A DNA stretch of 64,000 nt from an uncultured bacterium (GCA_965552055.1 CBEVQO010000007.1:41005-105004); one strand, 5' to 3'; shown: positions 1,484 to 63,000, counted from the first letter of the stretch. Notes: generated by a model not told the origin, from the sequence alone. A program made the numbers and translations.

Positions 1484-2698
1484 ATGATATTTCTTATTGT
1501 TTCAAGGATAATCCTTGGACGGATAGAGGGCATTATAGACCCTCCGACGACTGAATATTTTAACAGAGTTTGTGATTATGCTGAAAAAGTGAGAGCTGAA
1601 TTAATTTTATTTACAATGGATACTCCTGGTGGACTTGATAAATCAATGAGGGAGATAGTAAAACGGGAGCTCGGCAGTAAAATCCCGATATGCATCTATG
1701 TGTATCCTGATGGTGCAAGATGTGCATCAGCCGGTGTATTTATACTTTTAGCGGCTCACTATGCTGCGATGTGCCCGGGCACAAATATGGGTTCAGCACA
1801 TCCAGTAGCGATAGGAGGTAAAGTGCCAAAAGAAATGAAAGAAAAAATAGTAAATGATGCTGCCGCATACATAAAAGCCATCGCTGAAAAAAGAGGAAGA
1901 AATGAAGAGTGGGCAGAAAAAGCCGTTAGAAAAAGTGTAAATGTAACAGCACATAAGGCACTGGAATTAAACTTAATAGATTTCGTGGCAGATTCAGTTC
2001 AAGAATTGATAGAAAAAATTTCTCAAAAGATTGAAATAAGAGACAAAAATATAGAAGAAGTGAAATGGCTTTTCAAGGAGCGTTTTTTACATACAATTAC
2101 AAATCCCAATATTGCGTATCTTTTGCTGGTCCTCGGACTTTATGCTTTGATATTCGAGCTAATGCATCCTGGTGCAATATTTCCCGGTGTATTCGGTGCT
2201 GTATCGCTATTACTGGGGCTATATGGCTTGCATATTTTACCTGTAAATTACGCAGGCATAGGGCTTATAATACTTGGGATTGTTCTGTTCATACTCGAGG
2301 CATTAACACCAACTTTTGGACCGCTTACCATCGGTGGTATAACCTGTCTTATCTTTGGCTCTATGATGTTAATCCGTGTAAATGTGCCTTTTCTAAAAAT
2401 TTCCCGCTCATTGATACTGACGGTGGCAATTTTGCTTGGTGGATTTTTCAGCTTCGCTCTCACGATGGCACTCCGTGCAATGCGTCGTCGCCCGGTAACA
2501 GGGAAAGAAGGACTTATAGGTCTTGTGGGAGAATGCAAACAACCTATAAAACCGGGTAAAGAGGGGGTCGTAATGGTGCAGGGAACTTTATGGCGCGCAA
2601 TTGCAGATGAAAGCATAAAAAGAGGAGAAAGAGTAGAAGTAATAGAAACACTTCCCGGACTTATTTTGAAAGTAAAGAAAACAAAAAGAATAGCTTAA
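1484..2698 (+). CDS. nfeD: NfeD family membrane-bound ClpP-class serine protease
   Basis: MDTPGG, ASAGVFI, GSAHPV motifs, TM region, C-terminal OB fold (GTLWRA); adjacent to slipin. Confidence 0.93.
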
Positions 2699-2709
2699 AA
2701 GGAGGGGAT

Positions 2710-3459
2710 ATGTCAGGTGCAGTTATAACCCTTATAATAATATTTGGGATCATTTTATTGGCAAATGCTATAAGGATTTTCCCGGAATACGAAAGAGGGG
2801 TGCTGTTTCGCCTGGGAAGATTCGTTGGGGTAAGGGGACCCGGCATTGTGCTCATAATACCTATAATCGACAGAATACAGAGAGTGAGTTTAAGGATAGT
2901 GACGATGGATGTACCTCCACAGGAAGTTATCACAAAAGATAATGTTTCAATTTCTGTAAATGCAGTTGTTTACTTCAAAGTGGTTGACCCTGCTAAAGCT
3001 GTCCTCGAGGTACAGGATTATCTTTACGCTACATCACAAATTGCTCAAACTACTTTGCGAAGTGTTCTAGGTGCAGTTGAACTCGATGATGTGCTTGCGA
3101 GAAGAGAGAAATTGAATGAAGAATTAAGAAGGATAATCGATGAAGCAACAGACCCCTGGGGGATAAAAGTTACTGCTGTTGAGATAAAAGCAGTGGACCT
3201 ACCTGAAACGATGAAGCGTGCAATGGCAAGGCAGGCAGAAGCAGAAAGAGAAAAGAGAGCAAAAATCATAAGCTCTGAAGGTGAATATATGGCGGCAAGG
3301 AAATTCTACGAAGCTGCAGAAACCCTATCAAAACAGCCAATAGCTGTGCAATTGAGATTCCTGCATACTTTAACCGAAATAGCTTCGGAAAAGAATTCAA
3401 CAATCATATTCCCCGTACCAATCGAATTATTCAGAGCATTTATAAAAGAAAAGTCATGA
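2710..3459 (+). CDS. slipin/stomatin (SPFH, band 7) protein
   Basis: [51 protein letters not shown]. Confidence 0.95.
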
Positions 3460-3578
3460 AAAAATTGGTGATAATAGTTTTGATTTCTTTGTTTATAGCG
3501 GGTTTACTTTTTAAAGATTTTAAAATGATTTTCATCTATGGCTCTAAAATTTGCCTGTCTTGTCTTGGCTTAGGATAA
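3456..3578 (+). CDS. 40-aa CxxC membrane peptide (CD1871A-like), not in ORF track
   Basis: [44 protein letters not shown] overlap with slipin stop; C-terminal ICLxCxGxG directly before a 4Fe-4S membrane protein. Confidence 0.8.
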
Positions 3579-4336
3579 AAAGGATTTACTGGCAGTTAAT
3601 TTCCTTAATTTTATTGAATTCGAACTTTTATCGTCCATTTTACAGTCCGCTGAAGTACTTCCCGTGTCCCATCTTAAACTGCCATGCATGCCCCTATGCC
3701 CAAACAACATGCGCAATAGGAGCACTGCAGTTTTTTATCATGATGAAAAGAATCCCATATCTTATCCTTTCTGTGTTTTTATTTTCTTCCTTTTTCTTTG
3801 GCAGATTATTCTGTGGATGGATTTGCCCGCTCGGTCTAATCCAGGATTTATTTTCAAAACTGAGGAAAAAACATTTTCATATTCCGCATTTTCTTCGGTA
3901 CCTCAAATTTTTTGTTCTTTTTATGATTATTATAATCCCACTTTTTTACTACATCACTCCTTTTTGTAAATTCATTTGTCCTATGGGAGTAATTGGAGGG
4001 AGTTTTGCTTTTCTCTTCGATAAGAGTTTATTACAATTACCCTTAAATTTATTTAAATTCAAAGTATTTCTCACTTTAATTTTTCTGTTAAGTTTTATAT
4101 TCTGGCGCCGTCCTTTCTGTGCAGTTTTTTGCCCTGCAGGTGCTTTACTTTCCTTCCTTCATAAATTTTCAATTAAGAAGATAACTTTTGATGAGGATAA
4201 ATGCACAAAGTGTGGTGAATGTGTTACAAAATGTCCTGCTGGTTTAATTCCTTACAAAGATTATAATAGTTTCGATTGCATCAGATGTTATGAATGTGTA
4301 AAGATTTGCAAATTTAATGCCTTTAAAATTTTGTGA
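3551..4336 (+). CDS. 4Fe-4S binding membrane protein (NapH/MauN-like polyferredoxin)
   Basis: LNCHACP, GRLFCGWICPLG, FCKFICPMG, RPFCAVFCPAGA, CTKCGECVTKCP, CIRCYECVKIC. Confidence 0.88.
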   Translation: MPVLSWLRIKRIYWQLISLILLNSNFYRPFYSPLKYFPCPILNCHACPYAQTTCAIGALQFFIMMKRIPYLILSVFLFSSFFFGRLFCGWICPLGLIQDLFSKLRKKHFHIPHFLRYLKFFVLFMIIIIPLFYYITPFCKFICPMGVIGGSFAFLFDKSLLQLPLNLFKFKVFLTLIFLLSFIFWRRPFCAVFCPAGALLSFLHKFSIKKITFDEDKCTKCGECVTKCPAGLIPYKDYNSFDCIRCYECVKICKFNAFKIL

Positions 4337-4380
4337 AAATAATCTTGACAAAATGGAAAATCAATTATTAATAATTGAGG

Positions 4381-4452
4381 ACGCCGCTAGCTCAACGGTA
4401 GAGCACCGGATTCTTAATCCGGGGGTTCTGGGTTCGAATCCCAGGCGGCGTA
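4381..4452 (+). tRNA. tRNA-Lys (anticodon CTT), CCA not encoded
   Basis: Cloverleaf: acceptor ACGCCGC/GCGGCGT, D stem GCTC/GAGC, anticodon stem CCGGA/TCCGG with loop TTCTTAA, T arm CTGGG-TTCGAAT-CCCAG; TTGACA at 4345. Confidence 0.93.
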
Positions 4453-4459
4453 TTTTATT

Positions 4460-7849: not shown

Positions 7850-7883
7850 CTTTTCGTAAAAATTGAATAATTATAAAGAAGTT

Positions 7884-32900: not shown

Positions 32901-33080
32901 TATTTTCTCTGTATCTGCTTTTATTTCTATTAAATTTATTTCGGTCAATTCTTCTTCTCCCAATTTTATCATTTTTATTACGACAGGAAGATTTGGATAG
33001 CCCGGTTTTGCTATCTCTTCTCCTTTTATATTTTTGCCAAAACTTATCTCGAGTATTTTAAAAATCAAAAAGGAAATCAT
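29931..33080 (-). CDS. C25 (gingipain-like) cysteine peptidase with T9SS-like C-terminal domain
   Basis: YVLLGG, DLYYADLDG, IGRAP, NHDGHG, IGCW, NSRYGW, LFGDP; tail IYPNP...IYDVAGR...SGVYFV. Confidence 0.88.
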   Translation of the reverse strand: MISFLIFKILEISFGKNIKGEEIAKPGYPNLPVVIKMIKLGEEELTEINLIEIKADTEKIKGEIPPVTPQVILKLKPKKVKKAKIYEKDTLYPGKIYEYEKAKIKNVNYLLLKLYPVQYNPRKSTLIKISDLKFEILTKKSKNKTLNSIDYLIITSDSLSFAFLPLLKWREEEGFRCALRTVEWIEENYHGRDLQEKIRNYLKAVKDSGVKYVLLGGAHPIIPVRYAYAFDCQAGIMPNENDIPCDLYYADLDGDWDRDGDGVFGEVEDSVDLYPDLSIGRAPVRNYSEAVTFVNKILKYEKYPHKSSKNKALMLGEILWYEPYTDAGIGKDMICEILPPYFEIDKLYQSYGNEDSAHFFSSINSGKNFVNHDGHGWWYIMCIGEDYLFNGDTLSFTNSDMPVVWVSIGCWVGALDYVSIAECYTKTSKGGAVAFIANSRYGWGSPGNPGYGYSDKFDKRIFYEIFKDSVERIGDVLSFAKSYYVPLSHDSNVYRWHQFQINLFGDPAMKVWTEKPKGMQIITQDTIPQGDITLNIAVTDSENRPLNNVRICILKDTEIYIVDTLSGSGVFSFTTYSPGTLIVTCLKRNYIPCQKKIYIKQVNFVSLNYVIEEGDTFKIRFNLSNEGDTLRNVKCHFYADSIILLDTLREIGILPSGQSKTDSIRFLLSQIQNGKIYLIKMMLTSDKLNQEFVLKYVGKKPILHFVDYLNERITPDYSGSLYVVISNKGLDTLFDTLEISVSDANVSPHDLIVKLLPYQICTLSVWVDKTGSPPWRLHSFVRCEIDTITFYIFVGDRIKVYDFEDTVEWKVYGKNCLWHRTNLSSHSGSYSYYCGDEVTQEYRDNMDASLVSPSFIVTKDSKIGFWYKFDVPIYGCDGMYVELVKDDSLPFATLDYTGTGGALDSLTMGHDWCYAEYDISEFEGETLQLRFRFVADGDSEVSTGFFVDDVKLMYLIGDTIKEKEQVEKLRRIHIYPNPSKSILNFYFETPESQNVKVEIYDVAGRLQKAFYMKLKEGKNHFREKAQLKSGVYFVRIKSFDYCDKIIIVR

Positions 33081-34180
33081 GAGTAAAATTCTTTTATTTT
33101 GTCCGTGATAAAGTGTATCTGTTCTTCTGTTATTTCGGGATACATTGGTAGTGATAATACTTCTTTTGCTAATTTTTCAGCAACAGGGAAATCTCCCTCT
33201 TTGTATCCAAGATATTTGTATGCTGGTTGAAGATGTAAAGGTATTGGATAGTGCACAAGTGCAGATATGCCGTTTTCATTCAGATACTTCATCAGTTTAT
33301 CTCTATCTTTTGCTCTTATCACATAAAGATGATATACATGTTTTGCGTAATCTGCTTCTCGTGGCAATATTACATCTGGCAAATCTTTTAATAATTCCGT
33401 GTATAATTTTGCTGCTCTCCTTCTTTTTTCATTCCATTCATCGAGATATTTTAATTTTACAAGCAAAATTGCAGCTTGCAGGTCATCCATTCTTAAATTG
33501 TATCCCTCAATATAATGTTCGTATTTTGTTGTCCTTCCGTGATTCTGTAGCAAATTTATTTTATCTGCAAGTTCTTTATCATCCGTTAACACCATTCCTG
33601 CATGTCCATAGGCATTTAGATTTTTGCTCGGATAAAAACTAAAGCATGATGCAATCCCGAAGCTTCCGCATTTTTTACCCTTGTATTCTGCTCCATGGGC
33701 CTGAGCTGCATCTTCAATCGCATAAAGCCCATATTTATCACAAATTTCTAAAATCGGATCAATATCTGCTGGATGACCATATAAATCGACAAAGATAATA
33801 GCTTTTGTATCTTTTGTTATCGCTTTCTCTATAAGGTTCGGGTCAATACAAAATGTTTTTTCCTCGCAATCTACAAATTTTATCTTTGCTCCTGCATGCG
33901 TTATTGCCTCTGTTGTTGCTATAAAAGTAAAAGGAGTTGTTATTATCTCTTTGCCTTTGAGTTCAAGAGCCATTAAGATAAGGTCAAGTGCTGCAGAACC
34001 CGATGCTACACCCACTCCATACTTCCTTCCGCAATATTTCGCAAATTCCTCCTGGAACTTTTTAATGTATTCGCCCGTGGTAAAGGCACCTCGCTCTAAT
34101 ATTCCACATATCGTTTTATCTATTTCTTCTTTAATCTGCCTGTATTGTGCTACAAGGTCTATTAAAGGTATTCTATCCAT
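33077..34180 (-). CDS. DegT/DnrJ/EryC1/StrS aminotransferase
   Basis: IEDAAQAHGA, SFYPSKNL, HVYHLYV, LSLPMYP; ATG 34180 has GAGGAGG SD. Confidence 0.94.
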   Translation of the reverse strand: MDRIPLIDLVAQYRQIKEEIDKTICGILERGAFTTGEYIKKFQEEFAKYCGRKYGVGVASGSAALDLILMALELKGKEIITTPFTFIATTEAITHAGAKIKFVDCEEKTFCIDPNLIEKAITKDTKAIIFVDLYGHPADIDPILEICDKYGLYAIEDAAQAHGAEYKGKKCGSFGIASCFSFYPSKNLNAYGHAGMVLTDDKELADKINLLQNHGRTTKYEHYIEGYNLRMDDLQAAILLVKLKYLDEWNEKRRRAAKLYTELLKDLPDVILPREADYAKHVYHLYVIRAKDRDKLMKYLNENGISALVHYPIPLHLQPAYKYLGYKEGDFPVAEKLAKEVLSLPMYPEITEEQIHFITDKIKEFYS

Positions 34181-36170
34181 GATACACCTCCTCAAGCACA
34201 TTTGTGCCAATTTGTGATGCATGAAAGTTTATCCTTTCAAGGTCACTTATAAGGTCCATATGCAATCTGCTTGTCTCCAGACTTTCTTTTAAGCCCCTTC
34301 TCAATCTTTGTAGATGTTTATTATGCAATTCTTTTAATAACTTATTCCCTTCTTCTCTTCTTTTTGCAAGATTTTCAGCAAGTGTTTTATCAAAAGATGT
34401 TAAAACTTCTGTTGCCATTTTTACGGATTGCGTGCAAAATGCATGAAATTCTTCAATCTCCTTAAATCCTTCTTTTGAGAAGACAAGTCCCAGATCTATT
34501 TTCTTCTTGGCGTAGTGCATCAAACTGTCGCTTATTATATCACCAATATGTTCAAGCTCATCAACAGCATAAAGAAGGGTTACTCCTCTTTTTGAAAGCT
34601 CCTCTGATATTTCTTCCTGTGATACTTTTGTTAGATATTTCCTTATTTCAATTTCAAGGATATCGACATCATCGTCTTTTTTCAATATTTCTTTTAATAG
34701 ATTTTCATCGTTGTTTTTAAACACATCTATTGTTTTTTGCATCATAAAGTTTACTATATCACACATTCTGTGTACTTCTCGCATAGCAAGTGCAATTGCA
34801 GATGGCGGACTCGAACTAACAATGGCTTCATCAAGATAAACAGGTTTTACTCTTTCTTCTTTTTCTTTTATCAATCCTTTGATTAATTTTTCGTAATATC
34901 TTAAAATCGGCAGGAAGAAAATCGCAGCCATAATGTTAAAAATAGTGTGTGCATTTGCTATCTGTCTTGGGACAGATTTTGCAGTTAGAGAAACTAACTT
35001 TGTAAATTGTGGTAAAAACGGGAAAACAATTGCAACGAAAATTATTTTGAAGAGAAAATGTGCGAGTGCTACCCTTTTAGCTTCCGATGACTTGCCTATA
35101 GCAGCGTTTATAGCGTTTATGCATGTCCCTATATTTGCACCGAAAATTATTGGTATTGCAGAATTAATATCTATAAGTCCCTGGAATGCAAAAGATAGTA
35201 GCATTGCTATTGTTGTAGCAGATGACCTTACTATTGCCGTAAGAATTAATCCGATTAATAATCCCACGAAACTGTTTTTGCAGAAATCACATAGAATTTT
35301 GCGAATATTAGGATGATAGCGAAGTGGAGAAAGCGAAGAGCTCATTAAAGAGATTCCAAAGAATATCATTCCAAATGCAAATATCACTCTACCGAGATAA
35401 TGTAAATTTCTTCTTTTTGAAAATGTCATCAGGAAAAATCCAATTGCCAGTATTCCGAGTGCATAGTTGAAAATTTTGAATGCGATTATCTGGACTGTTA
35501 TCGTTGTAGCGATATCTGCACCGAGCAACACTCCGAGTGATTGAAACAATTTTAAAAGACCTGCATGTGCAAAAGATACGAGCATAACCGATGTGGCAGA
35601 ACTCGATTGCGTTAACATCGTTATACCTATCCCAGATATTACACCGAGCAAAGGAGTTTTTGTCATCTTCCATAATATTTCCCTTATTTTACCACCAGCG
35701 AATTTCGTAAGCGATTTGCTACCAAAATTCAATCCATTCATAAAGATGGCAAGTCCGCCGAGTAAAGCAAGGAAAGATAAAAGTTTCCATAATTTATGTA
35801 AAACTATGAAGGAAAAAGATAATTTATTTTTTGCATTAGGACTCCATGCTTCCAGGAAATATTCTCCTGTTGCCTCTCCTGTGTATACACGGAATAAAGC
35901 ATATCCTCTTTCGTCGGTTTTGCAAACAGCAGGCACTATCTTTGTCTTTTTACCCGTTATCAAATTATCAAAAGGTTCTCCTTTCACCTCAAGATATACA
36001 GGGATATCTGGAACAGGTTTTCCTTTTTCATCAACAGCTTCAATAACTATTGGCTTTGGAAGATAGGATAAATGATGCCCAACCTGATGGTCACCCGATA
36101 TATCTCTTCCTGTTACATCGTGTGCTTTTTTTAAAATTACAGCATTTATTATGATGAGTAAGATAACCAT
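34173..36170 (-). CDS. Na/Pi cotransporter family protein with N-terminal Ig-like and C-terminal PhoU domains
   Basis: QSSSATSV, GADIATT, GANIGT, RQIANAHTIFN, LEHIGD. Confidence 0.9.
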   Translation of the reverse strand: MVILLIIINAVILKKAHDVTGRDISGDHQVGHHLSYLPKPIVIEAVDEKGKPVPDIPVYLEVKGEPFDNLITGKKTKIVPAVCKTDERGYALFRVYTGEATGEYFLEAWSPNAKNKLSFSFIVLHKLWKLLSFLALLGGLAIFMNGLNFGSKSLTKFAGGKIREILWKMTKTPLLGVISGIGITMLTQSSSATSVMLVSFAHAGLLKLFQSLGVLLGADIATTITVQIIAFKIFNYALGILAIGFFLMTFSKRRNLHYLGRVIFAFGMIFFGISLMSSSLSPLRYHPNIRKILCDFCKNSFVGLLIGLILTAIVRSSATTIAMLLSFAFQGLIDINSAIPIIFGANIGTCINAINAAIGKSSEAKRVALAHFLFKIIFVAIVFPFLPQFTKLVSLTAKSVPRQIANAHTIFNIMAAIFFLPILRYYEKLIKGLIKEKEERVKPVYLDEAIVSSSPPSAIALAMREVHRMCDIVNFMMQKTIDVFKNNDENLLKEILKKDDDVDILEIEIRKYLTKVSQEEISEELSKRGVTLLYAVDELEHIGDIISDSLMHYAKKKIDLGLVFSKEGFKEIEEFHAFCTQSVKMATEVLTSFDKTLAENLAKRREEGNKLLKELHNKHLQRLRRGLKESLETSRLHMDLISDLERINFHASQIGTNVLEEVYHG

Positions 36171-37893: not shown

Positions 37894-38430
37894 ATGAAGG
37901 TATTTTTAATAATTATGTGCATGGAATTTCATTTTATTCCAATAAATTTAGATTTGGGGTTTTATGTTTCAACTGCGTATTTTTCAATTCGTTTTCTCCG
38001 CACAGATTTTAAGATAAAAGAAAGCACATTTAGTATCTCAGCAAATAGATGGGATGGGATTATTCACCATGGTCTTTATGAAAGTGTTTTTCCTTTGAGA
38101 TATATGTTTAGAAACTTTAATATAGAAGTCGACTGGCTTTACTATCAATTTGTATTGGGAGACGAATTTCAATTATCTGCTTATTTATGTCACGCTATCA
38201 GAGCAGGGATATCAAACCAATATATTTTTGGAAAGAAAGTTTACTTTTTGATTTCACCTCATATTAACATCATTGTGATTTATAAGCCATATTGTAATGA
38301 TACGGATTTTGGAATTTCAGCGGGTGCCGAAATATTTATTGGTGCAAGAACAAGGGAAAAAGGAACTGCAATTCGGCTTTTGATTACACAATATTGTAGT
38401 TGCATCCTTTTCTGGCTTTGCAATCTCTAA
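37894..38430 (+). CDS. hypothetical exported beta-rich protein (paralog of 38973)
   Basis: EFHFIPIN and LRTDFKIKE shared with third gene. Confidence 0.75.
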   Translation: MKVFLIIMCMEFHFIPINLDLGFYVSTAYFSIRFLRTDFKIKESTFSISANRWDGIIHHGLYESVFPLRYMFRNFNIEVDWLYYQFVLGDEFQLSAYLCHAIRAGISNQYIFGKKVYFLISPHINIIVIYKPYCNDTDFGISAGAEIFIGARTREKGTAIRLLITQYCSCILFWLCNL

Positions 38431-38431
38431 T

Positions 38432-38470
38432 TTTTATAAAACTTGACAAACTGGTTTTACAAATAAAATT
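38432..38470 (+). repeat. 39-nt direct repeat copy 2 (promoter), 5 nt before ATG 38476
   Basis: Identical to 37831-37869. Confidence 0.95.
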
Positions 38471-38475
38471 AAACG

Positions 38476-38976
38476 ATGGTGCTATTGTTTATAAGCGTGG
38501 TTGAACTGATACCCTATGAATTTTACCTGAATTATAATATCGGATTTTATGACAAAAAGCGTTTGGAAGAAAGTCCATATGAAGTGCATCCTTTTCCATT
38601 AAGCATAACTATCAGCAAAATGCAATATGAAAAAGGGAAATGGGGAATAGGTGCTAAAGTTTTGGAAATAGGTGGCACTGATTTGCCCTGGATTGGCTTT
38701 ATGAATGTCCTCCTGCAAACCAAATTTCAATTTCTTAAACTGGAATTAGAGTATTCACTCCTTTATGGAGTATGTCTTTGGATAGTTTATAGAGAACCCG
38801 GTTACGCGAAACTTTCACTTATTGCTGCGTATAAAGAGGGGATGACAAAAAGCATATTTTACAGGTTTCTGTTAAAATTTACATATATTTTATCCTATTA
38901 TGATGAAGATTACAGGATATGGGCGCACTGGATTTCGTTAGGAGTGGGCTTAAATTTCGGCCTGGAGGTTAAATGA
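38476..38976 (+). CDS. hypothetical exported beta-rich protein
   Basis: Aromatic alternating strands; ends ISLGVGLNFGLEVK; leaderless promoter. Confidence 0.7.
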   Translation: MVLLFISVVELIPYEFYLNYNIGFYDKKRLEESPYEVHPFPLSITISKMQYEKGKWGIGAKVLEIGGTDLPWIGFMNVLLQTKFQFLKLELEYSLLYGVCLWIVYREPGYAKLSLIAAYKEGMTKSIFYRFLLKFTYILSYYDEDYRIWAHWISLGVGLNFGLEVK

Positions 38977-39517
38977 AAATATTTTTGATAATTATGGCAA
39001 CCGAATTTCATTTCGTTCCCATAAACTTTGAGTTTGGATATCAATATTCTTTAAATGAAAATTTTTCATCTTTTAATTTTTCGCTTCGCCTTTTGCGTAC
39101 AGATTTTAAGGTAAAAGAAGATGTGTTCAGTATATCAATAGTAAAATGCGGAGCACCCGGTGCCCCTTATATAAGTCTTTTGCCATTAAGGTGTATGTCC
39201 AAACATTTTTATGTAGAAATCGAACCTTTTTCATGGTACTGGATTGAGCCATTTGAAGGTTCTCGTTGCCCCTCTTTGACAGCAGGGATATTTAATAAAT
39301 TCAATCTTGGCAAAAAAGCTTTCCTTTCGGTTTTGCCTTATGCTAATTTTCGTATGCTTTATGATATTGAATATGGAGAGACATTCCTCTGGTTTTTTTC
39401 AATTGGTGTTGAATTTGTGCAGGTGCCAGAACAAAAGATAAAGATGTGGCAATTCCTTTCTTGATTTTATACTATCTTCCTCCTCTCATTATTTTGCTTT
39501 TACTTTATAGCTCTTAA
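38973..39517 (+). pseudogene. paralog of 37894 with 1-nt frameshift near 39414 (uninterrupted ORF ends 39464)
   Basis: Homology GARTREKGTAI vs GARTKDKDVAI continues in a shifted frame to TAA at 39515-39517. Confidence 0.65.
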
Positions 39518-42814: not shown

Positions 42815-44954
42815 CTATTACTCTAAAGTCAACCCTTTGATTTTTGATTCTTCCTTCTTTTGTCAATTCAGAACCCAGTGGCTCTGTATTTCCATATCCT
42901 TTAACGGTCAATCTGCTTGCATCCACTCCCTTTTGCACCAGCCAGTTATATACTGACCTGGCTCTCCGTAAAGATAACTCTGGGTCGCGCTTCTCCTCTG
43001 CTCTACAGGTGTGACCTCCTATTTGTATCTTCAATTTAGGATGTTCTTTCATAAATTCCATCAGTTTATTCAAAGCATCATATTCTGTTGACCTTACTTT
43101 ATCGCTTAAAGTGGCAAAATAAACAATCATCCCGGGCAATCTTTTACCCAGAGGAATTAACTTTATATCAAGTGGTGGCATCACACCGCCAGGGAGTTCA
43201 ATCTCTTTTTCGTAAGGAACATAATCCTTTGCAGTTACTGTTATTTTTGTTTTTTCTCCTTTAAGTTCCATTTTAAATCCTTCTTTTGTGCACTTCATTT
43301 TTACTCCCTGGGGATGAGCCAGAATTTCTGCTTCTATGGGTTCTCCTGTGCAATAATCAAATATTTTACCAACTACCAGTGTCTTCTTATAAGCAGGTGT
43401 TAATGCTATTTTCATTACAATTGGTTCTGTTTTCGGTGTTATCATTTCGCTATAGGTCTCATATTCCGGCGCTTTAATAACAATCTCGTAGGGCTCTTCT
43501 CTCAGAGGCACACTTACTTTGAATAAACCAAGGGTGTCGGATTTTGTTTTAATATTTGTACCCGTGATAGTTATTTCAGCGGATAAAGGTTTATTCGTTT
43601 CTTTGTCAAAAATTTTACCACTTATTACACAAATTCCTTTTTTCAGAGGGATTTCAATTGCATTTTCACCTTCTTTGAATTCTATTTTCTTAACATAGGG
43701 GATATATCCTTTTACTTTCGCTGTAATAGTGTAGATTCCCGGCTTTAATCCGATTGTGAAATTTCCGAGTGAATCGGTTTTTATTTTCTTTTTGACTTCC
43801 GGGATTTCGATTTCCGCCATTAAAGGAGATTTTGTCTCTTCATCAATAACATGACCTTTTATTATTGCTCTCGCAATTTGCAATGCGAAATTTAATTCTT
43901 TTTCTTTTTTCTTTTTAATTGTAACTATCATTTCTTCTGATGTCTCATATCCTGCTTTGCCGCACATTACGAGCACTTTCCCTACCGGTAGCTTTACCCT
44001 GTATTGCCCTGTTTCGTCGGTATATGCAGTTGTATCGAGCTCCGGGAATATTATCATAGCAGCAGGAATAGGAGCACCTGTTTTTGCGTCAACGACTTTT
44101 CCATAAAGAATTCCTGTTGGCTTTTCTTCAGGAATAAAATAGAATTTGAAACCGAGTGCTAAATCTATTACCCACTTGGGAGCCGAACCCCATCCTCCTT
44201 TTACATAATACACAGTATCATTTATCAAAGAAGGTTCTTTGCTCAATCTCAAAGGAGTATTTATCTCAAAATTTATTTTCTTACCTATTCTGAAACCTGG
44301 CGTAAAGTAAAATGCTCCATCGTTCAAATCCCGCTTATTTCTTCTCCACCAGTAAAATGTAAACATCGGTTTGAATGCACCGTAAAACATGGATAGCCTA
44401 CCTGAAAGGAAGAATTTATCTGCATCGGATTTATTAAAGAAATAATGGATATATCCGCAGCCTGCGTTCACTCCGACTGGAACTTTTTCACCGAATATAG
44501 CAGAAAGAAAGAGTGCACATCCTATAGCCTGCTTCTTCGCAGTAAAATAGCGTAAACACCCGCCCTTGTAGTCCCAGTAACCAGTGTGATGCTCCTTCAC
44601 ACCCATTTTCTCACCGGATGGGTAACTATAATAAGGACAAATTGAAACATAGAAAGGATGAAAAGGCATGCAAACCGCGGCTTCTAAATCTATATCACCA
44701 AATCCATAAGCCAGAGTCTCTTCCTTTGTCCCCCAATCGGTTATGTAATCAAGATGTCCTTTTGTTTTAAAAGATAGAGAAAGCCATTTTGCGAATGTAA
44801 ATCCAATGCCTGCTTTTAAATCACCCAATATGAGGTAGTATTCATCTTTGCCCTTTACGGCGCTCCCAAGTCCGAATCCGATATCAAGACAGCCAGCTTT
44901 TTGCTCGTATCCTTCTACGATTACGAGATTTAAAATAAAAAGTAGCACGCTCAT
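42801..44954 (-). CDS. OmpA-family protein with N-terminal barrel-like region and four carboxypeptidase-regulatory-like repeats
   Basis: Four G(K/H)(V/I).D..T..P(I/L) repeats; IGGHT, LSLRRARSV, GYGNTEP, NQRVDF; start ATG 44954 after TTGACA-N15-TAAAAT. Confidence 0.85.
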   Translation of the reverse strand: MSVLLFILNLVIVEGYEQKAGCLDIGFGLGSAVKGKDEYYLILGDLKAGIGFTFAKWLSLSFKTKGHLDYITDWGTKEETLAYGFGDIDLEAAVCMPFHPFYVSICPYYSYPSGEKMGVKEHHTGYWDYKGGCLRYFTAKKQAIGCALFLSAIFGEKVPVGVNAGCGYIHYFFNKSDADKFFLSGRLSMFYGAFKPMFTFYWWRRNKRDLNDGAFYFTPGFRIGKKINFEINTPLRLSKEPSLINDTVYYVKGGWGSAPKWVIDLALGFKFYFIPEEKPTGILYGKVVDAKTGAPIPAAMIIFPELDTTAYTDETGQYRVKLPVGKVLVMCGKAGYETSEEMIVTIKKKKEKELNFALQIARAIIKGHVIDEETKSPLMAEIEIPEVKKKIKTDSLGNFTIGLKPGIYTITAKVKGYIPYVKKIEFKEGENAIEIPLKKGICVISGKIFDKETNKPLSAEITITGTNIKTKSDTLGLFKVSVPLREEPYEIVIKAPEYETYSEMITPKTEPIVMKIALTPAYKKTLVVGKIFDYCTGEPIEAEILAHPQGVKMKCTKEGFKMELKGEKTKITVTAKDYVPYEKEIELPGGVMPPLDIKLIPLGKRLPGMIVYFATLSDKVRSTEYDALNKLMEFMKEHPKLKIQIGGHTCRAEEKRDPELSLRRARSVYNWLVQKGVDASRLTVKGYGNTEPLGSELTKEGRIKNQRVDFRVIGVLP

Positions 44955-45012
44955 CAAAATATTTTATATAATTTTTCCGAATGTCAAGGAAAAAAATTGC
45001 CGAATATTCTAA

Positions 45013-48996: not shown

Positions 48997-49670
48997 TAAG
49001 GATAATAATAAAAGTAGTTTTCTTCTCTGCCTCTGTTTAATCTGAATAAATAAGCTACAGCATCTTTAAATTCTTCTGCAAGAGAATAAAATCTTGTTGT
49101 AAGGTCAATTGACATTCCAAAATAAGCTTCTCTTCCATTGACCGGACGGCAACCAAATTGCAAAGTCAATTCATCATTAATATCCAATCCGATGAAGACA
49201 AAAGAAGAGTCAAAGTTAAATTTCCTTATTTCTTTTAAAGGAAAAGTGACACCAAAAGAAAGCCTTGTTTTTCTCTTTCGGTATTTCCTGACTCTTTTTT
49301 CTATTTGCGTGAGCCTGGACTTCATCTTATCGGGTATTTCAACTCCTGTTATTTCAGCGAGATTATGGATTTGATTTATATACGCCAAAACTTTTTTAAA
49401 ATTTGGATACTTTGGATTAAACAGGTTATATTTTAAACTAACACCACCGATGTAATCTTTATCACCATTTATAATAATTCCGCCTGTGAGATGCATTTCA
49501 AGGTAAATTCTGCGCTGCGACATCTTTTCAACCTCTTTCATCAACATCATTATATTTTTTAGTCCATAAAAATATATTTCATGGGCAATAAGTTTATCCA
49601 CTGCTTTTAAGCCACCTATAGTGTCCTGAATTAGAACACGATAGGGAATCATTATGAGGAAGATAATCAT
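48996..49670 (-). CDS. hypothetical exported protein
   Basis: Long ORF, short hydrophobic start MIIFLIMIP, ATG 5 nt after TTGACA-N15-TAAAAT. Confidence 0.7.
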   Translation of the reverse strand: MIIFLIMIPYRVLIQDTIGGLKAVDKLIAHEIYFYGLKNIMMLMKEVEKMSQRRIYLEMHLTGGIIINGDKDYIGGVSLKYNLFNPKYPNFKKVLAYINQIHNLAEITGVEIPDKMKSRLTQIEKRVRKYRKRKTRLSFGVTFPLKEIRKFNFDSSFVFIGLDINDELTLQFGCRPVNGREAYFGMSIDLTTRFYSLAEEFKDAVAYLFRLNRGREENYFYYYP

Positions 49671-49836
49671 CAATCATTTTAATGATAAGTTCAGTTTGTC
49701 AAGTTTATTTATTTTAAATTTAAATGCATATCCTCTCATATATAACACATTTACACCCTCGATTTGTGGCAGTTTTCTGAACCACATTTTAGAAGGTAAG
49801 AGTGCATGTTAAAATTTTTGAAATTCATATTAAAAT

Positions 49837-53368: not shown

Positions 53369-53378
53369 AGGGGGGATT

Positions 53379-55415
53379 ATGTTTGTGTTACTCTGTATAA
53401 TGTACATGGAGACGAAATATGCGACAGGGTGCTTGGTGGAAGACCCCACGACCATTCCATGGCTTCATCGTGCTGAAATAAAAGCGAAGAAAATCTTGCC
53501 ATCGAAGGTTGATTTATCGAAATTCATGCCTCCTGTTGGGAATCAGGATGGTCAGGGTTCCTGTGTTGCATGGGCTGTTGGCTATTATCATAAGACATTT
53601 CAGGAATGGCTCGAACATAGATGGGATGTTACTTCGCCTTATCATCAATTCAGTCCTGCTTTTATTTACAATCAGATAAATGGTGGTGTGGATGGTGGCT
53701 CTTACATTTCCGATGCCTTGAAATGCCTTTGTGACCTTGGATGCGCAAATTTGGTGCTATCACCTTATGATCCTTATGATTCAACTACATGGCCAAGTGA
53801 AGAAGCATATGACTCTGCGATAAAGTATCGGAGTGACTCTGCATATTATTTGTATTGCGGGGATACTGCTGGAATAAGGATGATAAAGCAATTGCTTTAT
53901 GATAGTATAACTGTTATAATTGCGATTGCTGTTTATTACAATTATCTTTACATTGAAAATTATGATACGATGTATTGTGTTGCTGATTCTGCTGGTGAGC
54001 TTTATGGCTGGCATGCTCAATGTATAGTCGGTTATGATGATAACAAGCCAACGCATGATGGTGTGGGAGCTTTCAGGGTAGTCAATTCATGGGGGACTGA
54101 CTGGGGCAACAACGGGTATTACTGGATGTCATATGAAGCTGTAATGAGACCTTCTTTCTGCTGGTGTTATGCTTACTATTCTACCGATAAAATAAATTAC
54201 TCTCCCAGGGTTAAATCACGCATAAGGATAATACATCCTTCGAGGTATACCGTTGGGATAAGTCTGGGAGCAGGAGAGTCCACTTCTCCTGTTTGGGAGA
54301 AGAACTATTTCGACTGGTATATGCCGAGGCGAGCTGACTGGCCATTTCCCTCGCATAAAATAGTCCTTGATTTAACTGATGGTACAGATTTTATTTCGCG
54401 CGGAACCAATATATTTCTCCGATGCGTTGATGAAGTTATTGATGCATATACGGGCTCGGTTGATACATTTCTTGTGCAACATCTTGAATGGGCGGTAACA
54501 GTGGCATCACAGCAGACACCTGCTCCGATAACCGATGGCGGAACTGCTTATGTGAATGTAATATTGCCAGGCACCGCATACTACTCAATATCAGGATATG
54601 TAAAGAGATGGGATGATACTCCTGCAGACTCAATTATGATGGTGCTTACAGGATATGTTAATGAAACATTATATACAGATAGCAGTGGATATTATGAGTT
54701 TGACAGCCTTTTATCTGGTAAAAATTATATTTTAACTCCCTATAAAGAGAGCTGGATATTTGACCCGGATTGCAGGGAATATAATACTTTAAGCGCAAGT
54801 CAAACAGAGCAAAATTTCACAGGATATACTGATATTTATGAGCCAAATAATACAATTGCACAGGCTTATGGACCGCTTTTGAAAGATACTTTATACTACT
54901 CTTTCATCTGGTCTGCTGATGATACAGACTGGTATTACTTTGAATTACCTGAGAGTGTTTTCTATTCAATTGATGTTATTTTAACCAGTTTACCAGCTGA
55001 CTATGACTTATTTTTGTATGACGAAAATGGTCAAATGATAGCAAGTTCGGAGAATTCTGGCTTTCATTACGAAAGAATAGAAATGGATACATTAACTGGC
55101 AAGAAATACATTAAAATAATCGGCAAAAATGGTGCTTATCATCAAAAAGATACATATTTATTAAAAGTAAGCTGGTCTTTCCTTGCATTAAACGAAGAAA
55201 TAATCAAACACAAAGTCTTAATTTATCCCAATCCAGCGCATGGAGAAATAAAAATTTTCGCATCACCTGGAATGCGATATGAAATTTATGATATTAGCGG
55301 TAGATTAATAGAAAAAGGCTTTTCTAAAATAAATGCGAGAAATTTATCTCCCGGGATTTACTTTATAAGAATCGGTAATTCAAAAAGATTGCATAAAATA
55401 ATATTGCTTAAATGA
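53379..55415 (+). CDS. C1 papain-like cysteine peptidase with PPC-like and T9SS-like C-terminal domains
   Basis: QDGQGSCVAWA, GWHA, NSWGTDWG; YEPNN...DYDLFLY; IYPNP...IYDISGR...PGIYF. Confidence 0.88.
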   Translation: MFVLLCIMYMETKYATGCLVEDPTTIPWLHRAEIKAKKILPSKVDLSKFMPPVGNQDGQGSCVAWAVGYYHKTFQEWLEHRWDVTSPYHQFSPAFIYNQINGGVDGGSYISDALKCLCDLGCANLVLSPYDPYDSTTWPSEEAYDSAIKYRSDSAYYLYCGDTAGIRMIKQLLYDSITVIIAIAVYYNYLYIENYDTMYCVADSAGELYGWHAQCIVGYDDNKPTHDGVGAFRVVNSWGTDWGNNGYYWMSYEAVMRPSFCWCYAYYSTDKINYSPRVKSRIRIIHPSRYTVGISLGAGESTSPVWEKNYFDWYMPRRADWPFPSHKIVLDLTDGTDFISRGTNIFLRCVDEVIDAYTGSVDTFLVQHLEWAVTVASQQTPAPITDGGTAYVNVILPGTAYYSISGYVKRWDDTPADSIMMVLTGYVNETLYTDSSGYYEFDSLLSGKNYILTPYKESWIFDPDCREYNTLSASQTEQNFTGYTDIYEPNNTIAQAYGPLLKDTLYYSFIWSADDTDWYYFELPESVFYSIDVILTSLPADYDLFLYDENGQMIASSENSGFHYERIEMDTLTGKKYIKIIGKNGAYHQKDTYLLKVSWSFLALNEEIIKHKVLIYPNPAHGEIKIFASPGMRYEIYDISGRLIEKGFSKINARNLSPGIYFIRIGNSKRLHKIILLK

Positions 55416-56695
55416 TTGGATTTTTGGTTTGTGTATTTTATCTTAATTTGGACCATCCTGTTTATGATATTCTTCCTGTTTTATATATTTCGGGAGAAAT
55501 TAAAAATTTACCTATTGATAGACCTTATGATTTAGACGGTCTTTTATCTTCTGAATTACTCAAAAAATATGTTGGTAAGAGGTGGAAATTTTTTTCTTAT
55601 TTCTTTGCCGATGTTTTTTATTGTGATTCGCCTGGTTTTCATTTATCTGCATCGTTCTATTATTCTGATAAGTTCTTTTCTCTTGGCTGGCAGGGGATAG
55701 GCGGTACACTTGAGGGTTTACCCCTGGCAAGACCCTGGCGTGGCGAAGTGCCTTTTCGTACCCCTTATATGGGATTTATCAATAAGCAGGGGTACTTATC
55801 TTTTACTTTTAAGCGAACCGAATTTTTATTTGGTAGATTCCCGTTGCTGGAAGGACCGGGCTGGAATTCAGGATTACTCGTTTCTCCAAAGCCTTACGAT
55901 GTTTTAATGATGAAATATAAAATAAATGACAGAATAAAGTTAAAATATTTTGTTTTATTTCTTGATAAATATGAGGAAGATAGTGTGATATACAAGAGGT
56001 GGCTTTCATTTCATGAGATTAGCATTAGATTTAAGGGATTAACTCTTGGTTTATCAGAAGCCATTTTATATGGCAGGACGAGTTATGTTCCAGAATTATA
56101 TTATTTGAATCCTGTACTTTTGTGGATTGCCAGTCAGCATAATTGCTGGGAAGATGATAATTTATTTTTCAAACTGGAATTTGCTTTAGACTTAAGGGGA
56201 TTGCGTATTTATGGAGAATTTCTTGTGGATGATTTTCAGTATGCACCTGACCCGAGGGGCGAGCCGAACGAAATAGGTGGTATTATCGGGGTGCAAAAAT
56301 ATTTTAAAAATGAATTTTTGAATTATTTATGGATTGAATACAGAGCTGTTACTGCATGGGTTTATAATCAGAGGCATCCGAGAAACAGGTTGATATATTA
56401 TGGTGAATGCCTTGGTAACGAATTTGGACCCGATGGTGATAAGCTCTTGATAAAACTCGGCAGATTGAAGAGTGGCAGATTGATGGAACTTGAGGCTTAT
56501 ATACAAAGGAAAGGAGAGAATGAGATAGAAACGCAATGGCCCGATGTCTTTCCTGGAGATTATTTTTTGACGGGCAAGGTGAAAAAAGATTTTGGAATGA
56601 TTCTGAAGTGTATTTTAGTTCCGCAATATAGATTTGAAATAGGGATGGGTACGAAGGATAAAATACTTCGCTTTGTTTATACTGTTTCTTTTTAA
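55412..56695 (+). CDS. capsule assembly Wzi-like outer-membrane protein
   Basis: GPG...GLLVS, LGLSEAILY, YLNP, DDN, YGEFLVDD; terminal Phe. Confidence 0.65.
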   Translation: MIGFLVCVFYLNLDHPVYDILPVLYISGEIKNLPIDRPYDLDGLLSSELLKKYVGKRWKFFSYFFADVFYCDSPGFHLSASFYYSDKFFSLGWQGIGGTLEGLPLARPWRGEVPFRTPYMGFINKQGYLSFTFKRTEFLFGRFPLLEGPGWNSGLLVSPKPYDVLMMKYKINDRIKLKYFVLFLDKYEEDSVIYKRWLSFHEISIRFKGLTLGLSEAILYGRTSYVPELYYLNPVLLWIASQHNCWEDDNLFFKLEFALDLRGLRIYGEFLVDDFQYAPDPRGEPNEIGGIIGVQKYFKNEFLNYLWIEYRAVTAWVYNQRHPRNRLIYYGECLGNEFGPDGDKLLIKLGRLKSGRLMELEAYIQRKGENEIETQWPDVFPGDYFLTGKVKKDFGMILKCILVPQYRFEIGMGTKDKILRFVYTVSF

Positions 56696-56869: not shown

Positions 56870-56916
56870 TTTTGAAAAAATTGTTGACAGAATGATAATA
56901 TGCTTAAATGTATAAG

Positions 56917-59427: not shown

Positions 59428-60032
59428 TGGAAACTCTGGGTGTATGGCTTGCAGCCGGGTTTACTCTTTGCATTTTCTCTTTCCTTTATAAAGACAATCC
59501 ATTTTACAAACTTGCCGAACATATCTATGTAGGAGCTTCTGCTGCTTATATGGTGATATTTGTGTGGAGTTTCGATGTAAAGCCGATGCTCATAGACCGA
59601 TTTATTGTTAATGGTAAGGTAAACTGGTCATTACTCTTTCCTGCGTTCTTCAGTGCCTTGATGTTATGTCGTTTTATCCCGCGTATTGCATGGCTTTCTC
59701 GCTGGGCAATAGCTTTTACAGTGGGAATAGGTGCGGGGATAGGATTTACTATGGGTTTACATGGCTATATCTTACCTCAATTAAAGGCAACGATGGTGCC
59801 ACTTGTAAATGTAAATAATATCATTATAGTGATTGGTGTTCTCTCTGTTTTAATGTATTTCTATTTCTCAATAGAGCATAAGGGTCCTGTCAAATATGTT
59901 TCTCGTCTTGGCAGGATTTTTATAATGATAGCATTTGGAGCATCATTTGGTTATACTGTTATGGCAAGAATATCCCTTCTTATCGGCAGAATACACTTCC
60001 TCTTATCCGACTGGCTTAAGATAATAAAATAG
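59424..60032 (+). CDS. conserved multi-pass membrane protein
   Basis: FSFLYKDNPFYKLAEHIYVG, FGASFGYTVMARISLLIGR. Confidence 0.8.
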   Translation: MMETLGVWLAAGFTLCIFSFLYKDNPFYKLAEHIYVGASAAYMVIFVWSFDVKPMLIDRFIVNGKVNWSLLFPAFFSALMLCRFIPRIAWLSRWAIAFTVGIGAGIGFTMGLHGYILPQLKATMVPLVNVNNIIIVIGVLSVLMYFYFSIEHKGPVKYVSRLGRIFIMIAFGASFGYTVMARISLLIGRIHFLLSDWLKIIK

Positions 60033-60041
60033 GAGGGGGCT

Positions 60042-63000
60042 ATGTTAATATTAGCCCTAATTTTTGCATATTCAAAAGGAGACACGATTTCATTATGGAT
60101 GTATGACCCTGGATTTTATTCCAGATATTACCTCACAAAAGCAGCTTGTAGAAAGGTGGGAGCTGATTTTTACATTTTCACACAGGAAGAGACATTGAGG
60201 ATAAAAGAATTGTGCTGGAATAGAATAACGGGTGCTATTTTCATGGTAAAAGGTCATTATGATTCGCTTTACAGGACAACCGATTATGGTTGCAACTGGA
60301 CTGCTCTTGATAAGGAAAATGTCATGGATATGGATATAGCTCCTTTGTCTTCTACTTCTTCATTATTAATCGTGGGTTGTTATAATGATAATGTTTACTG
60401 GACTACGGATGATGGAGCGAGCTGGAAGTATAAAAATATAGGTGATAAAAAGATAAGGAGAGTAGCAGTTTCTCCTTATACTGTTTCTGGGACATATTAT
60501 TTTTACTATGCAACGGATACAGCCGTATATAGTAAGGATAATTCTGTCTTTACTGCATGGCAACATCTGCCTGGCTCAGATACTCTTGGGACGATAACAT
60601 GTATGAGAGGTCATCTCACAAATTATGGCAAATTATTTGTTGGCACAAAAGAAAAAGGTGTCTATAAATGGGTGGCTTCCGATAATCGGTGGTACAGTAT
60701 TAACAATGGCTTATCGAATCTCAATATAAAAGATATAGCAATAGATTTTCAGGATTCACTAAAACTCTACCTTATAACAGGTGACGGCTTATATGTTAGC
60801 TTTGATGAAGGTTCAAACTGGAATAAAATAAACACTCCTTTTGATACTTTGATAAATTGTGTTTATGTTGATAAAAATTCGAATATTTTCCTTGGTACAG
60901 AAAAAGGGCTTTATAAATCGTCGGATGGTGGTATCACATGGGTGTTGCTCGATTCAGGCATGGGTGATTGGGGATATTTACCTTATGCTCATAATACATT
61001 CAGGGTAGTGGCAGAGAATGATACCATTATCTGTGGTACCTATCAGGGTGTCTTTATAAGCTTCGATGGAATAAATTTTGAAGAGCGCAATAAAGATTTA
61101 CTTATAAGTTACATAACACCCTCTGATGTTGATACTATTTCCAAATATTATCAAGAGGTTGCAACGATTTTAAGAAATGAATTTGGTAATGAACCCGATG
61201 TTGATAATGATGGTAAAGTGATTGTTTATCTTTCTAACATTAGAAAGGGACGGTGGTGGGGGTATTCTGTTTATGTTGATGGTTATTTTGACCCTGTAAA
61301 TGAGTATCCTCAAAATGTGGTTGATACACTTTATGGTGAAGAATTTAAGTCGAATTTCTGTGAAATTATTTATTACAATGCGAAAAATGGTTTTATTGAC
61401 CCTCAAAAAGTTAAAGGTGCTTTATCTACTGCTTTCTGTAAGCTGATACACTGGGGCAAAGACCCAGATGAATTCCCTGCAATAGGGCTACGATGCGGAT
61501 ATGTTTGTGATTTCCTTATAGAAGGAATAGCAGGATACGCTAAATACATAGTTAATGTAGGTAAAGGTAATACAGACCCCGCAACTTATAGTTTGCCACT
61601 TAATAACGATTTAGTATACTGGGGAGATGACTATCTTGCTGACGAAATTAACTATGCGTACGAGTTTATGATGTTTATTTATGAGTATTATGGAGATACT
61701 GTTATTAAAAAGATAATGGAAAATGATTTGAACGACAAAGAAAGTATAGAAGATGTGTTATCTTTACCGTTTTCCAAAATATTTTCTAAATTCTCATCAG
61801 TGATAGGGATAGAGACAGAAGGGATGGGAGATACTTTATGTTTGAAATATCTTAACATTTCTCCTAGTTTTCTGAATATAATAGATTACTATAAAGAAAA
61901 GATTATGCCTTGGTCTATTCGTAGATATGTGATGAGGCGTGGAGAAGCTAACTTTGGTGATAGTGTTTATTTTGATGCAGATGATTATGGTGTTGTAAAA
62001 GTATGGGTGTTGAAAGACCCTGCACCTTATACTGCTGGTTTCCCATCGGACACACTAGGAGTGGTTAAATGCTTTGCTCTTTCGCTTGATAATGAGAACT
62101 TTGGCAAGTTTGAAGTTACATTGGAAGATTCACAGGTTGGGCTGGTAATTGCTAACCCTTCGGATACTTTTTATGATTTCTGGATTGACCCGAATTCGGA
62201 TACTCTCTTGCCTCCGCATTCTCTTGAATGGGTAAATGAATGGGAAGCAGATAGTGTTGTGCTGAAATGGTCGCCACCTGTTGTTACAAAAGAAGCGAAA
62301 ATCACAGGATATAATGTTTACAGAAGAAAAGAGAGTGAAACAACTTACACAAAAATAGCAGGTGTGATAACCCCGGAATATATTGATAAAAATGTTTTGA
62401 ATGAAACAACTTATTACTATGTGGTTACTGCACTTTATAATCGTGGTGAAAGCGGTTATTCTGAACCTCTCAAAGTGACGCCAACGCATTATCCGCCACC
62501 GGGTGATTTCAGAGCATCGGGAGGCTATGGAAAAGTATTCTTAACATGGAGTTTGCCGAGGGGTGTTTCTATGAGCAAGTTTATAAAGAGTATGAAAATG
62601 AAAGATAAAGGTTCTCTTTATTTCAGATTGTACAGGTCAAAGACATCTGGCGGACCTTATGTAGTTATTGCTCCTGAAATTTATACTTTATTTTACATAG
62701 ATACGAGTGTGATGCTTGACAGCACCTATTACTATGTGATAAAAGCAATTTATAGCACAGGTGAAAGCCCTTACAGTGATGAGTGTTCTACGACTGTATC
62801 TTCTTCAGGTGGAGCATCACTGGGTTATAGATTTATTGAATCAGGAGAATTATGGACAGCTATAAGTAATTTTGGTAGCTATGGACATCCTGGGGCAGGT
62901 GGTTTGGGTGTGCCCTCATATAATTGGCCCGGTTCTTATCAAGGCGAGCCGACCTATAATTATTATCTTTATGAAGGAGGGTTATGGCTTGGTGCAAAAG

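Follow-up and report, generated by a model that had tools for sequence, protein, structure and literature searches.

Signal peptides that direct bacterial proteins to the Sec channel follow an n-h-c plan, and a basic N-terminus improves their efficiency (PMC9360617). This plan is a basic rule of bacterial export; the labelling used by SignalP 6.0, for example, demands an n-region of at least two residues, a window of seven residues and a c-region of at least three (10.1101/2021.06.09.447770). Type IX secretion system (T9SS) cargo requires a Sec signal as well (PMC12618676). Natural signal recognition particle (SRP) loss is known from Leptospira, Dehalococcoides and SAR86, in which Ffh, FtsY and the SRP RNA are missing and Sec and signal peptidase I (SPase I) are kept (PMC4758666). 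The subject of this paper is a leader that is shorter than textbook signal rules permit, a hydrophobic “stub” of 7–10 residues. It was noticed in a 64,000-nucleotide stretch of DNA from an uncultured bacterium (GCA_965552055.1 CBEVQO010000007.1:41005-105004, hereafter the window), in front of NfeD and other proteins of normally exported families.

Our preferred reading, to which we assign a probability of about 0.55, is that the stub is a bare-core Sec signal that would be handled by SecA and an ordinary SecYEG channel and in most cases cut by a single SPase I. That stub proteins are exported through Sec at all, whether the stub is cleaved or not, is judged very probable.

The window corresponds to C7:41005-105004 of a genome of 2.23 Mb with 35% GC and 97% completeness, which was treated as a member of WOR-3 because the named homologs of the window NfeD are assigned to “candidate division WOR-3”. 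The gene set comprises 2065 genes from our own gene caller. The caller is incomplete, since it skipped a Pfam-supported 4Fe-4S membrane protein at window positions 3548-4336. Stubs were collected with a filter that accepts a start Met followed by 6–9 hydrophobic residues in a short uncharged run without a basic n-region, long runs being excluded. The filter passes 166 of the 2065 starts (8.0%), compared to 105 of 9824 internal Met positions in the same genome (1.07%), which served as the background. Positions 2–8 of the stubs consist to 73–95% of I/L/F/V/M/W/C, a composition that is partly set by the filter, and the NfeD orthologs are alike in this respect. The hydrophobic core of about seven or more residues that is expected of a signal is thus present, and constitutes the entire leader.

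Stubs are found at the N-terminus of extracytoplasmic proteins. A Pfam scan that covered 126 of the 166 stub proteins, with the first 420 residues of each, returned matches for 84, of which 50 were read as envelope or exported proteins, six as cytoplasmic enzymes whose first strand is hydrophobic, two as integral membrane proteins and 26 as uninformative. The envelope and exported group includes LolA, an LptA-like protein, DegP, three TonB receptors, binding proteins of four kinds, FlgA, FlgH, Wza, CsgG, SPOR, MltG, ComEA, C25 and S8. From these sequences, about 150 stub proteins look exported. A control scan of non-stub proteins (40 of the 140 sampled) gave 15 matches, 13 of them cytoplasmic, one membrane and one exported, and the sole exported match, g0855, is really a stub protein that was mis-started by the gene caller.

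The T9SS sorting tail, with 71 matches picked blind to their N-termini, supplied an independent set. The filter passes 23 of these 71 against 143 of the 1994 other proteins (odds 6.2, p = 1e-9). By eye, the 71 divide into 29 stubs, three more stubs that lack a canonical start in frame, 32 charged signals and seven fragments. Normal signals thus occur side by side with stubs in this genome, as they also do on BamA and FlgI. One flagellar locus (G000:C8:69466-71611, L065) combines a FlgH with a stub and no Cys, a FlgA with a stub and an FlgI with a normal signal. Lipoproteins retain the classical form: among 50 lipobox calls, 47 have the Cys at 13–22 and keep K/R, and the other three resemble internal starts. 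The lipoprotein at 24686, which had been singled out for its normal signal, conforms to this pattern.

The same mature protein can follow either kind of leader. In same-genome paralogs, an identical mature start stands behind a stub or a normal signal and falls at residue 8–10 of the stub forms. In one pair, MIILCLLM in one protein and a 17-residue charged signal in the other both precede H-T/I-ITVDG; in further pairs, MLLFILFT is matched by 16 residues, MMILCVL by 17, MILTLLIS by 15 and MIIYLLTFS by 16. The C25 peptidase of the window has such a partner in g0820, in which the same first strand follows a charged signal of 15 residues.

Leaders this short could be an artefact, with true starts lying upstream at unusual codons or with signal-less proteins simply remaining in the cytoplasm. 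Odd starts do seem to occur in this genome: lepB has no ATG, GTG or TTG before its membrane anchor, three T9SS paralogs have no in-frame canonical start, and cytoplasmic enzymes make up about six of the 84 filter hits with an annotation. Against this, an in-frame stop lies within six codons upstream in 106 of the 166 stub genes genome-wide (within nine codons in 121), the stub is kept across some 15 families, and the essential LolA and LptA could not function in the cytoplasm, as a matter of general knowledge. In the window, the starts quoted in the preliminary description are all present in the sequence, and no start but that of the C25 peptidase has more than 0–6 open codons upstream. The C25 gene is preceded by 32 polar open codons that contain no ATG, GTG or TTG, and its start abuts the preceding stop. 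Only the leader of the FN3-DUF6754 protein, given as MNLLFLLVF, needs qualification: it is short, although an alternative ATG at 56908 (MYKMNLL...), which lies three codons further upstream, would extend it and maybe add one Lys.

Promoters also speak against the artefact. The ATGs of nfeD, 38476, ompA and 49670 lie 5–6 nt behind a predicted -10 box (6 nt for nfeD), and about 230 genes of the genome start 4–8 nt behind such a box, so that translation from further upstream would likely find no mRNA. By its sequence, the nfeD mRNA is likely leaderless, and the in-frame TAA reported at 1472 is indeed there, inside the -10 box. In two of four public runs, one nucleotide is inserted at 1476, which shifts the frame, and position 1481 is altered, while no difference is listed for the nfeD ATG or stub. 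A public protein record holds the identical 404-residue NfeD. Pfam domains begin at residue 9–13 of stub proteins (Peripla_BP_6 at 9, Peripla_BP_2 at 10, ZnuA at 11 and YceG at 12). The stub is, by these alignments, the whole leader, joined straight to the mature fold, and the artefact is considered highly improbable.

Two of the unusual starts deserve description in their own right. The lepB gene (L053:1441-2178; G000:C1:37768-38505) differs from 29 of 29 parsed relatives in lacking a canonical start before the anchor. An ATT preceded by a strong Shine-Dalgarno site and an ATA that overlaps the panC stop are the candidate starts; the 5' region has no listed difference in two runs. The T9SS paralogs g0200, g0202 and g0350 (G000:C1; T9SS tails at 218777, 223843 and 392156) share one 5' end, in which, at a G run, the frame of the promoter-adjacent ATG is off by one base and the long frame resembles an ordinary stub. 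This may reflect slippage, an unusual start or a lesion that the three have in common.

The stub is not confined to one genome. In a comparison of NfeD leaders that omitted three truncated entries and all lengths outside 16–23 and 27–37, there were 47 distinct short leaders of 6–13 residues, with K/R in one of 47 (the set was not selected on charge), and 34 long leaders of 17–27 residues, with K/R in 33 of 34. The sole named NfeD from outside WOR-3 (TA06) has a long leader, and for a binding protein that bears a stub, the named homologs from outside WOR-3 have long leaders too; the alignment to homologs that had been proposed as a check on leader length thus turned up no stubs on the named non-WOR-3 homologs inspected. 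Within the phylum, 30 loci show that NfeD has a stub or an 11–12-residue form in most readable families, whereas its signal stays long in f8 and f11. In samples of 57–100 kb per genome, with few hits each and some of them false, the filter passes 2.6–11.8% of genes in the bacterium's own class, 6.7–15.3% in f10, f15 and f21, 3.3–4.8% in f12 and f19 and 0–2.3% in f9, f31, f13, f17, f11, f16 and f27. Control loci from outside the phylum gave 0/58, 3/100 and 0/50 genes, these being replication-origin regions that are poor in exported proteins. As read from these sequences, the stub is best described as a phylum trait of graded strength.

The idea of a lineage-specific minimal export signal has thus held up well: the stub marks exported families, swaps with normal signals in paralogs and orthologs, and spans WOR-3. 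Neither short leaders elsewhere, nor upstream starts, nor a cytoplasmic location of the proteins, the three findings that were expected to speak against the idea, materialized.

In 22 of the 120 NfeD database entries, the start is an internal Met that lies 8 residues ahead of the reference column, and the stub is apparently missing; P0024, P0029 and P0030 are among them, and in G036 the full form is present. Since gene callers mis-start stub proteins in this way, WOR-3 secretomes are probably undercounted. Two relatives, G022 (L165-L168) and G064 (L180-L183), have uncharged 10–11-residue leaders that end in a lipobox Cys, possibly a micro form of the lipoprotein signal.

How might such a leader work? 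In the preferred reading, the Met plus 6–9 uncharged hydrophobic residues would act as a bare Sec signal, and SecA would feed the protein post-translationally into an ordinary SecYEG channel. Post-translational export by SecA is suggested because no SRP was found and because T9SS cargo and outer-membrane proteins need Sec. The neutral and probably still formylated N-terminus would sink into the bilayer, and the junction would reach the outer face, where LepB would cut after Ser, Ala or Gly with a large residue at -3. Charge would have been lost because a core of 7–9 residues is too short to span the membrane as long as it remains tied to the cytoplasmic face; shortness is tightly linked to charge loss, so that the N-terminus would have to leave the cytoplasmic face for the junction to meet the peptidase. 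Lipoproteins keep a charged signal of 12–21 residues, as would be expected if Lgt and signal peptidase II (SPase II) still need a spanning helix. A minority of stubs without a usable site, about 15–27%, would remain on the protein or be trimmed in some other way.

Evidence for cleavage comes from the junction. For these counts, 14 filter hits that were judged to be cytoplasmic, membrane or mis-started were removed, which leaves 152 stubs. Where the hydrophobic run ends at position 9 or later, the end is S/A/G in 38 of 83 stubs against a background of 27.7% (p = 5e-4), and S/A/G occupies one of the last two positions in 42 of the 47 NfeD stubs. Stubs have a large -3 residue and no separate c-region before the fold that starts at 9–13. 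The preliminary description was right that there is no AxA site, although a weaker large-x-small site is often present. Its yardstick of 18–30 residues for normal signals does not suit this genome, in which SPase I signals, as called by our own heuristic scorer, have a mode of 16–18 residues with a tail to 11–14, and Leu or Ile at -3 in 76 of 129. With normal signals that are short and often have Leu or Ile at -3, the stubs resemble the last members of a series.

The main rival is a Sec signal that stays uncleaved, too short to hold in the membrane and so pulled through with the protein, or else serving as a weak half-bilayer anchor in place of a lipid. FlgH, Wza, CsgG and LPP20, which are lipoproteins in other organisms, bear a stub and no Cys here, as this rival would have it, and a stub serpin adjoins a lipoprotein paralog. 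It could also explain the stubs without a usable -1 residue and the frequent Met, Leu, Thr or Phe at the homologous position, both of which are detailed below. The excess of S/A/G at the junction and its retention in NfeD argue the other way, as does the general knowledge that TonB receptors, LolA, LptA and T9SS cargo must quit the inner membrane. On balance, uncleaved passage is thought to be rather unlikely as the general rule, if well ahead of the other rivals.

Several points weigh against a bare-core signal that is mostly cut. Of the 152 stubs, 41 have no S/A/G at positions 6–12, and 22 have no S/A/G/T/C. As a terminator of the run, S/A/G is not above its level in internal hydrophobic runs (85/152 vs. 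50%, p = 0.18), and only Ser is (22% vs. 11.5%). In the exactly mappable paralog pairs, the homologous -1 residue is Met, Thr, Leu, Ser and Ser, and by eye it is Phe in the C25 peptidase of the window. The residue before the first NfeD strand is small in 91% of the long forms too, so it may reflect a constraint of the mature fold, and since the NfeD homologs share descent, their leader counts overstate independence. The formylation and sinking of the N-terminus is a step that we only infer, and no change in SecY, LepB or SecA was found that accounts for tolerance of stubs. Finally, some stub proteins have cytoplasmic-looking relatives (g1693/g1694 and the AMMECR1 protein g1866). g1693 and g1694 (G000:C7:35160-36079, L089) are short coiled-coil proteins whose paralogs g0321, g0322 and g1132 have no stubs; their own stubs are possibly false positives, or the two are newly exported copies.

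Two other approaches to the junction were abandoned. Gln is mildly above background at positions 8–12 (3.2% vs. 1.8%), and a pyroglutamate “Q-rule” as a cleavage mark was dropped when no PF05096 cyclase was found (other cyclase types were not searched). A single-sequence fold of a BtuF-like stub protein was discarded for its predicted confidence (pLDDT) of 41.

The export machinery is ordinary in most respects. The genome encodes SecA, SecY, YidC, Fmt, Def, an SprA-like match, two Omp85 genes and one SPase I, its only S26 peptidase. By the residue roles, numbering and prl allele positions of E. coli SecY, the SecY pore ring and plug match E. coli and are uniform there across 31 WOR-3 SecY, and a relaxed, prl-like SecY was rejected. 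LepB keeps its Ser-Lys dyad and has conventional catalytic and pocket residues, and no pattern in the pocket separates stub-rich from stub-poor families, by which a special SPase I pocket was rejected too. SecA (L096:4368-7550) has about 100 extra residues in its preprotein-binding region. The spacing of this insert is the same in the 13 of 21 SecA sequences where the pattern matched, the stub-poor f9 and f31 included, and it was therefore rejected as an explanation.

A separate lineage-specific route or peptidase might operate beside Sec and SPase I, such as YidC-assisted entry or a protease that favours a large -1 residue. It would fit the two discrete NfeD classes, with hardly any lengths of 14–20, the many stubs that end in large residues, and the presence of YidC in a genome where no SRP was found. 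Across the genome, on the other hand, leader lengths run continuously from 7 through 11–14 to 16–18, paralogs swap class freely, YidC moves short segments only (PMC9360617), and there is only the one S26 peptidase (no search was made for other peptidases that co-occur with stubs). We regard such a route as improbable.

The SRP is where the machinery departs from the norm. Ffh, FtsY and the SRP RNA were not found in this genome, in which the sole SRP-type GTPase is FlhF (entry G000:C1:475494-476060, L054). Of the alterations foreseen in SecA, SRP and SPase I, only that in the SRP is thus borne out; SPase I is conventional, and stub-poor families have the SecA insert as well. Stubs could then be an adaptation to SRP loss or a consequence of it, very hydrophobic N-termini being freed from capture by the SRP, and the bacterium's own class indeed yielded no Ffh in 22 of 22 genomes. 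Ffh is present in 81 of 151 genomes of the phylum and was not found in families f12, f18-f20, f22, f25 and f28-f30. A midpoint-rooted SecY tree places the Ffh-less class as one clade beside the Ffh-bearing f10/f15/f21, f8 and f13/f26, with f12+f19 and f18 as separate Ffh-less branches. However, stubs are frequent in the Ffh-bearing f10, f15 and f21 (5/74, 6/90 and 9/59 genes) and on their NfeD, and pooled stub frequency shows no difference by Ffh status (18/393 genes in six Ffh-less genomes vs. 34/802 in 13 Ffh-bearing ones, p = 0.29). SRP loss is therefore not the cause, and we give this explanation hardly any credence. The order may have been the reverse, with stubs arising first and the SRP being lost later.

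The leaders of the window are collected in Table 1. Pfam backs the family labels NfeD, C25, Na/Pi, OmpA, C1 and DUF6754; the Wzi label is weak (E = 7.5e-4, under the cut-off). The open reading frames (ORFs) 38476 and 49670 match no Pfam family, so that for 49670 no such match backs export. ORF 38476 might be a small outer-membrane β-barrel, a lead from language-model features that fall below the recognition threshold. The absence of a basic n-region, described as the general case, holds for the quoted leaders and not for ORFs 37894 and 38973, which carry Lys2. The Na/Pi cotransporter (window 34173-36170) has an additional N-terminal domain of about 130 residues behind its stub. An Rfam scan of the window found one tRNA and no other RNA family.

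Table 1. Leaders and adjoining predicted promoters in the window (positions from its first nucleotide).
Feature	Position	Strand	Remarks
nfeD predicted sigma70-type promoter	1451..1477	+	-35 TTGACA 1451-1456, 15-nt spacer, -10 TAAAAT 1472-1477
NfeD micro leader, 7 residues, MIFLIVS	1484..1504	+	First β-strand of ClpP-like domain adjoins
Control lipoprotein signal, normal, 18 residues	24633..24686	-	Lys-Lys n-region, Cys19
C25 peptidase with T9SS tail, 7-residue leader MISFLIF	33060..33080	-	Paralog g0820 charged
Na/Pi cotransporter, 10-residue leader MVILLIIINA	36141..36170	-	Stop one codon upstream
Protein without assigned function, paralog of 38973, 9-residue stub with Lys2	37894..37920	+	
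ORF 38476, predicted promoter and 7-residue leader MVLLFIS	38443..38496	+	-35 38443, -10 38464-38469, leader 38476-38496
Protein without assigned function, 9-residue stub with Lys2	38973..38999	+	In-frame stop directly upstream
OmpA-domain protein, predicted promoter and ~10-residue leader MSVLLFILNL	44925..44987	-	-35 44982-44987, -10 44961-44966, leader 44925-44954
ORF 49670, predicted promoter and 7-residue stub MIIFLIM	49650..49702	-	-35 49697-49702, -10 49676-49681, stub 49650-49670
C1 peptidase with T9SS tail, 9-residue leader MFVLLCIMY	53379..53405	+	Strong Shine-Dalgarno site in front
Wzi-like protein, 10-residue leader MIGFLVCVFY	55412..55441	+	In-frame stop directly upstream
FN3-DUF6754 protein, leader of 10-13 residues	56908..56946	+	Start ambiguous, 56908 or 56917
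Giant protein cut by contig end, 9-residue leader MLILALIFA	60042..60068	+	Paralog g1268 has T9SS tail and similar stub

The promoters themselves have an unusual spacing. Genome-wide, there are 260 sites of the form TTGACA-N15-TA[ACT]AAT, against 48 with N16, 21 with N17 and 3–14 at other spacings; in sampled relatives, the spacer peaks at 16 or 17. Predicted N15 promoters in the window lie at 1451-1477, 38443-38469, 44961-44987 and 49676-49702. The RpoD encoded in the window (rpoD, 16369-18096) differs from other primary sigma factors by 1-residue gaps only, in the part that was compared.

If the stubs are what they appear to be, roughly half of the non-lipoprotein exported proteome of this bacterium does without n- and c-regions, yet its channel and peptidase look ordinary. 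The matched natural pairs, with the same mature protein behind a long or a stub leader in the same genome, open old questions to direct test, including the minimum length of a Sec signal, the purpose of the positive charge and the need to span the membrane for cutting; a cultured diderm WOR-3 strain, sy37, exists (PMC12285271). A more far-reaching view, which we hold tentatively and think less probable than not, is that stubs are a distinct natural class of signals, uncharged, 7–9 residues long and with a neutral N-terminus that departs from the cytoplasmic face, with which a good part of the periplasmic, outer-membrane and T9SS proteins is released uncut through an unmodified Sec channel. If this view is right, stubs would mark the real lower limit of a Sec signal, and annotation would systematically miss or mis-start such secretomes.

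No description of such short uncharged leaders was found in a literature search, which did not extend to subscription journals, and the term “signal peptide” is absent from the available main text of the WOR-3 papers PMC12285271 and PMC12542636. A natural class without a basic N-terminus is likewise not described in the available part of PMC9360617. Among other leaders, those of type IV prepilins (SPase III) are similarly very short and precede a hydrophobic stretch; in prepilins, though, a short basic part is removed in the cytoplasm by a cut after Gly, and the long hydrophobic helix, with its Glu5, is retained, whereas in WOR-3 the short part is itself hydrophobic, uncharged and not followed by a long helix. 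Stubs have no twin arginine and no n-region of any kind, which sets them apart from twin-arginine translocation (Tat) signals, and a signal anchor of about 18 or more residues does not fit a run that ends at 6–12 (long runs being excluded by the filter) with folds beginning at 9–13. Lipoprotein SPase II signals are the shortest classical type, with a short h-region (PMC9360617), but they need a lipobox Cys and keep K/R, and none of the 152 stubs has a lipobox. For the naturally SRP-less lineages, short signals are not mentioned in the available part of PMC4758666; in WOR-3, SRP loss co-occurs with stubs and is not their cause. The prl alleles of SecY and SecE in E. coli show Sec exporting proteins with defective signals (PMC3101351), but these are laboratory mutants of the channel, whereas the pore ring and plug residues of WOR-3 SecY are those of the wild type. 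The closest relative remains the Sec/SPase I signal, with which the stub shares its N-terminal position, a hydrophobic core, exported domains behind it, interchangeability in paralogs and often a small residue at the junction, and from which it differs in having neither a basic n-region nor a separate polar c-region and a total length of 7–10 residues. The stub probably works like a Sec signal peptide yet appears to lack two defining features of one.

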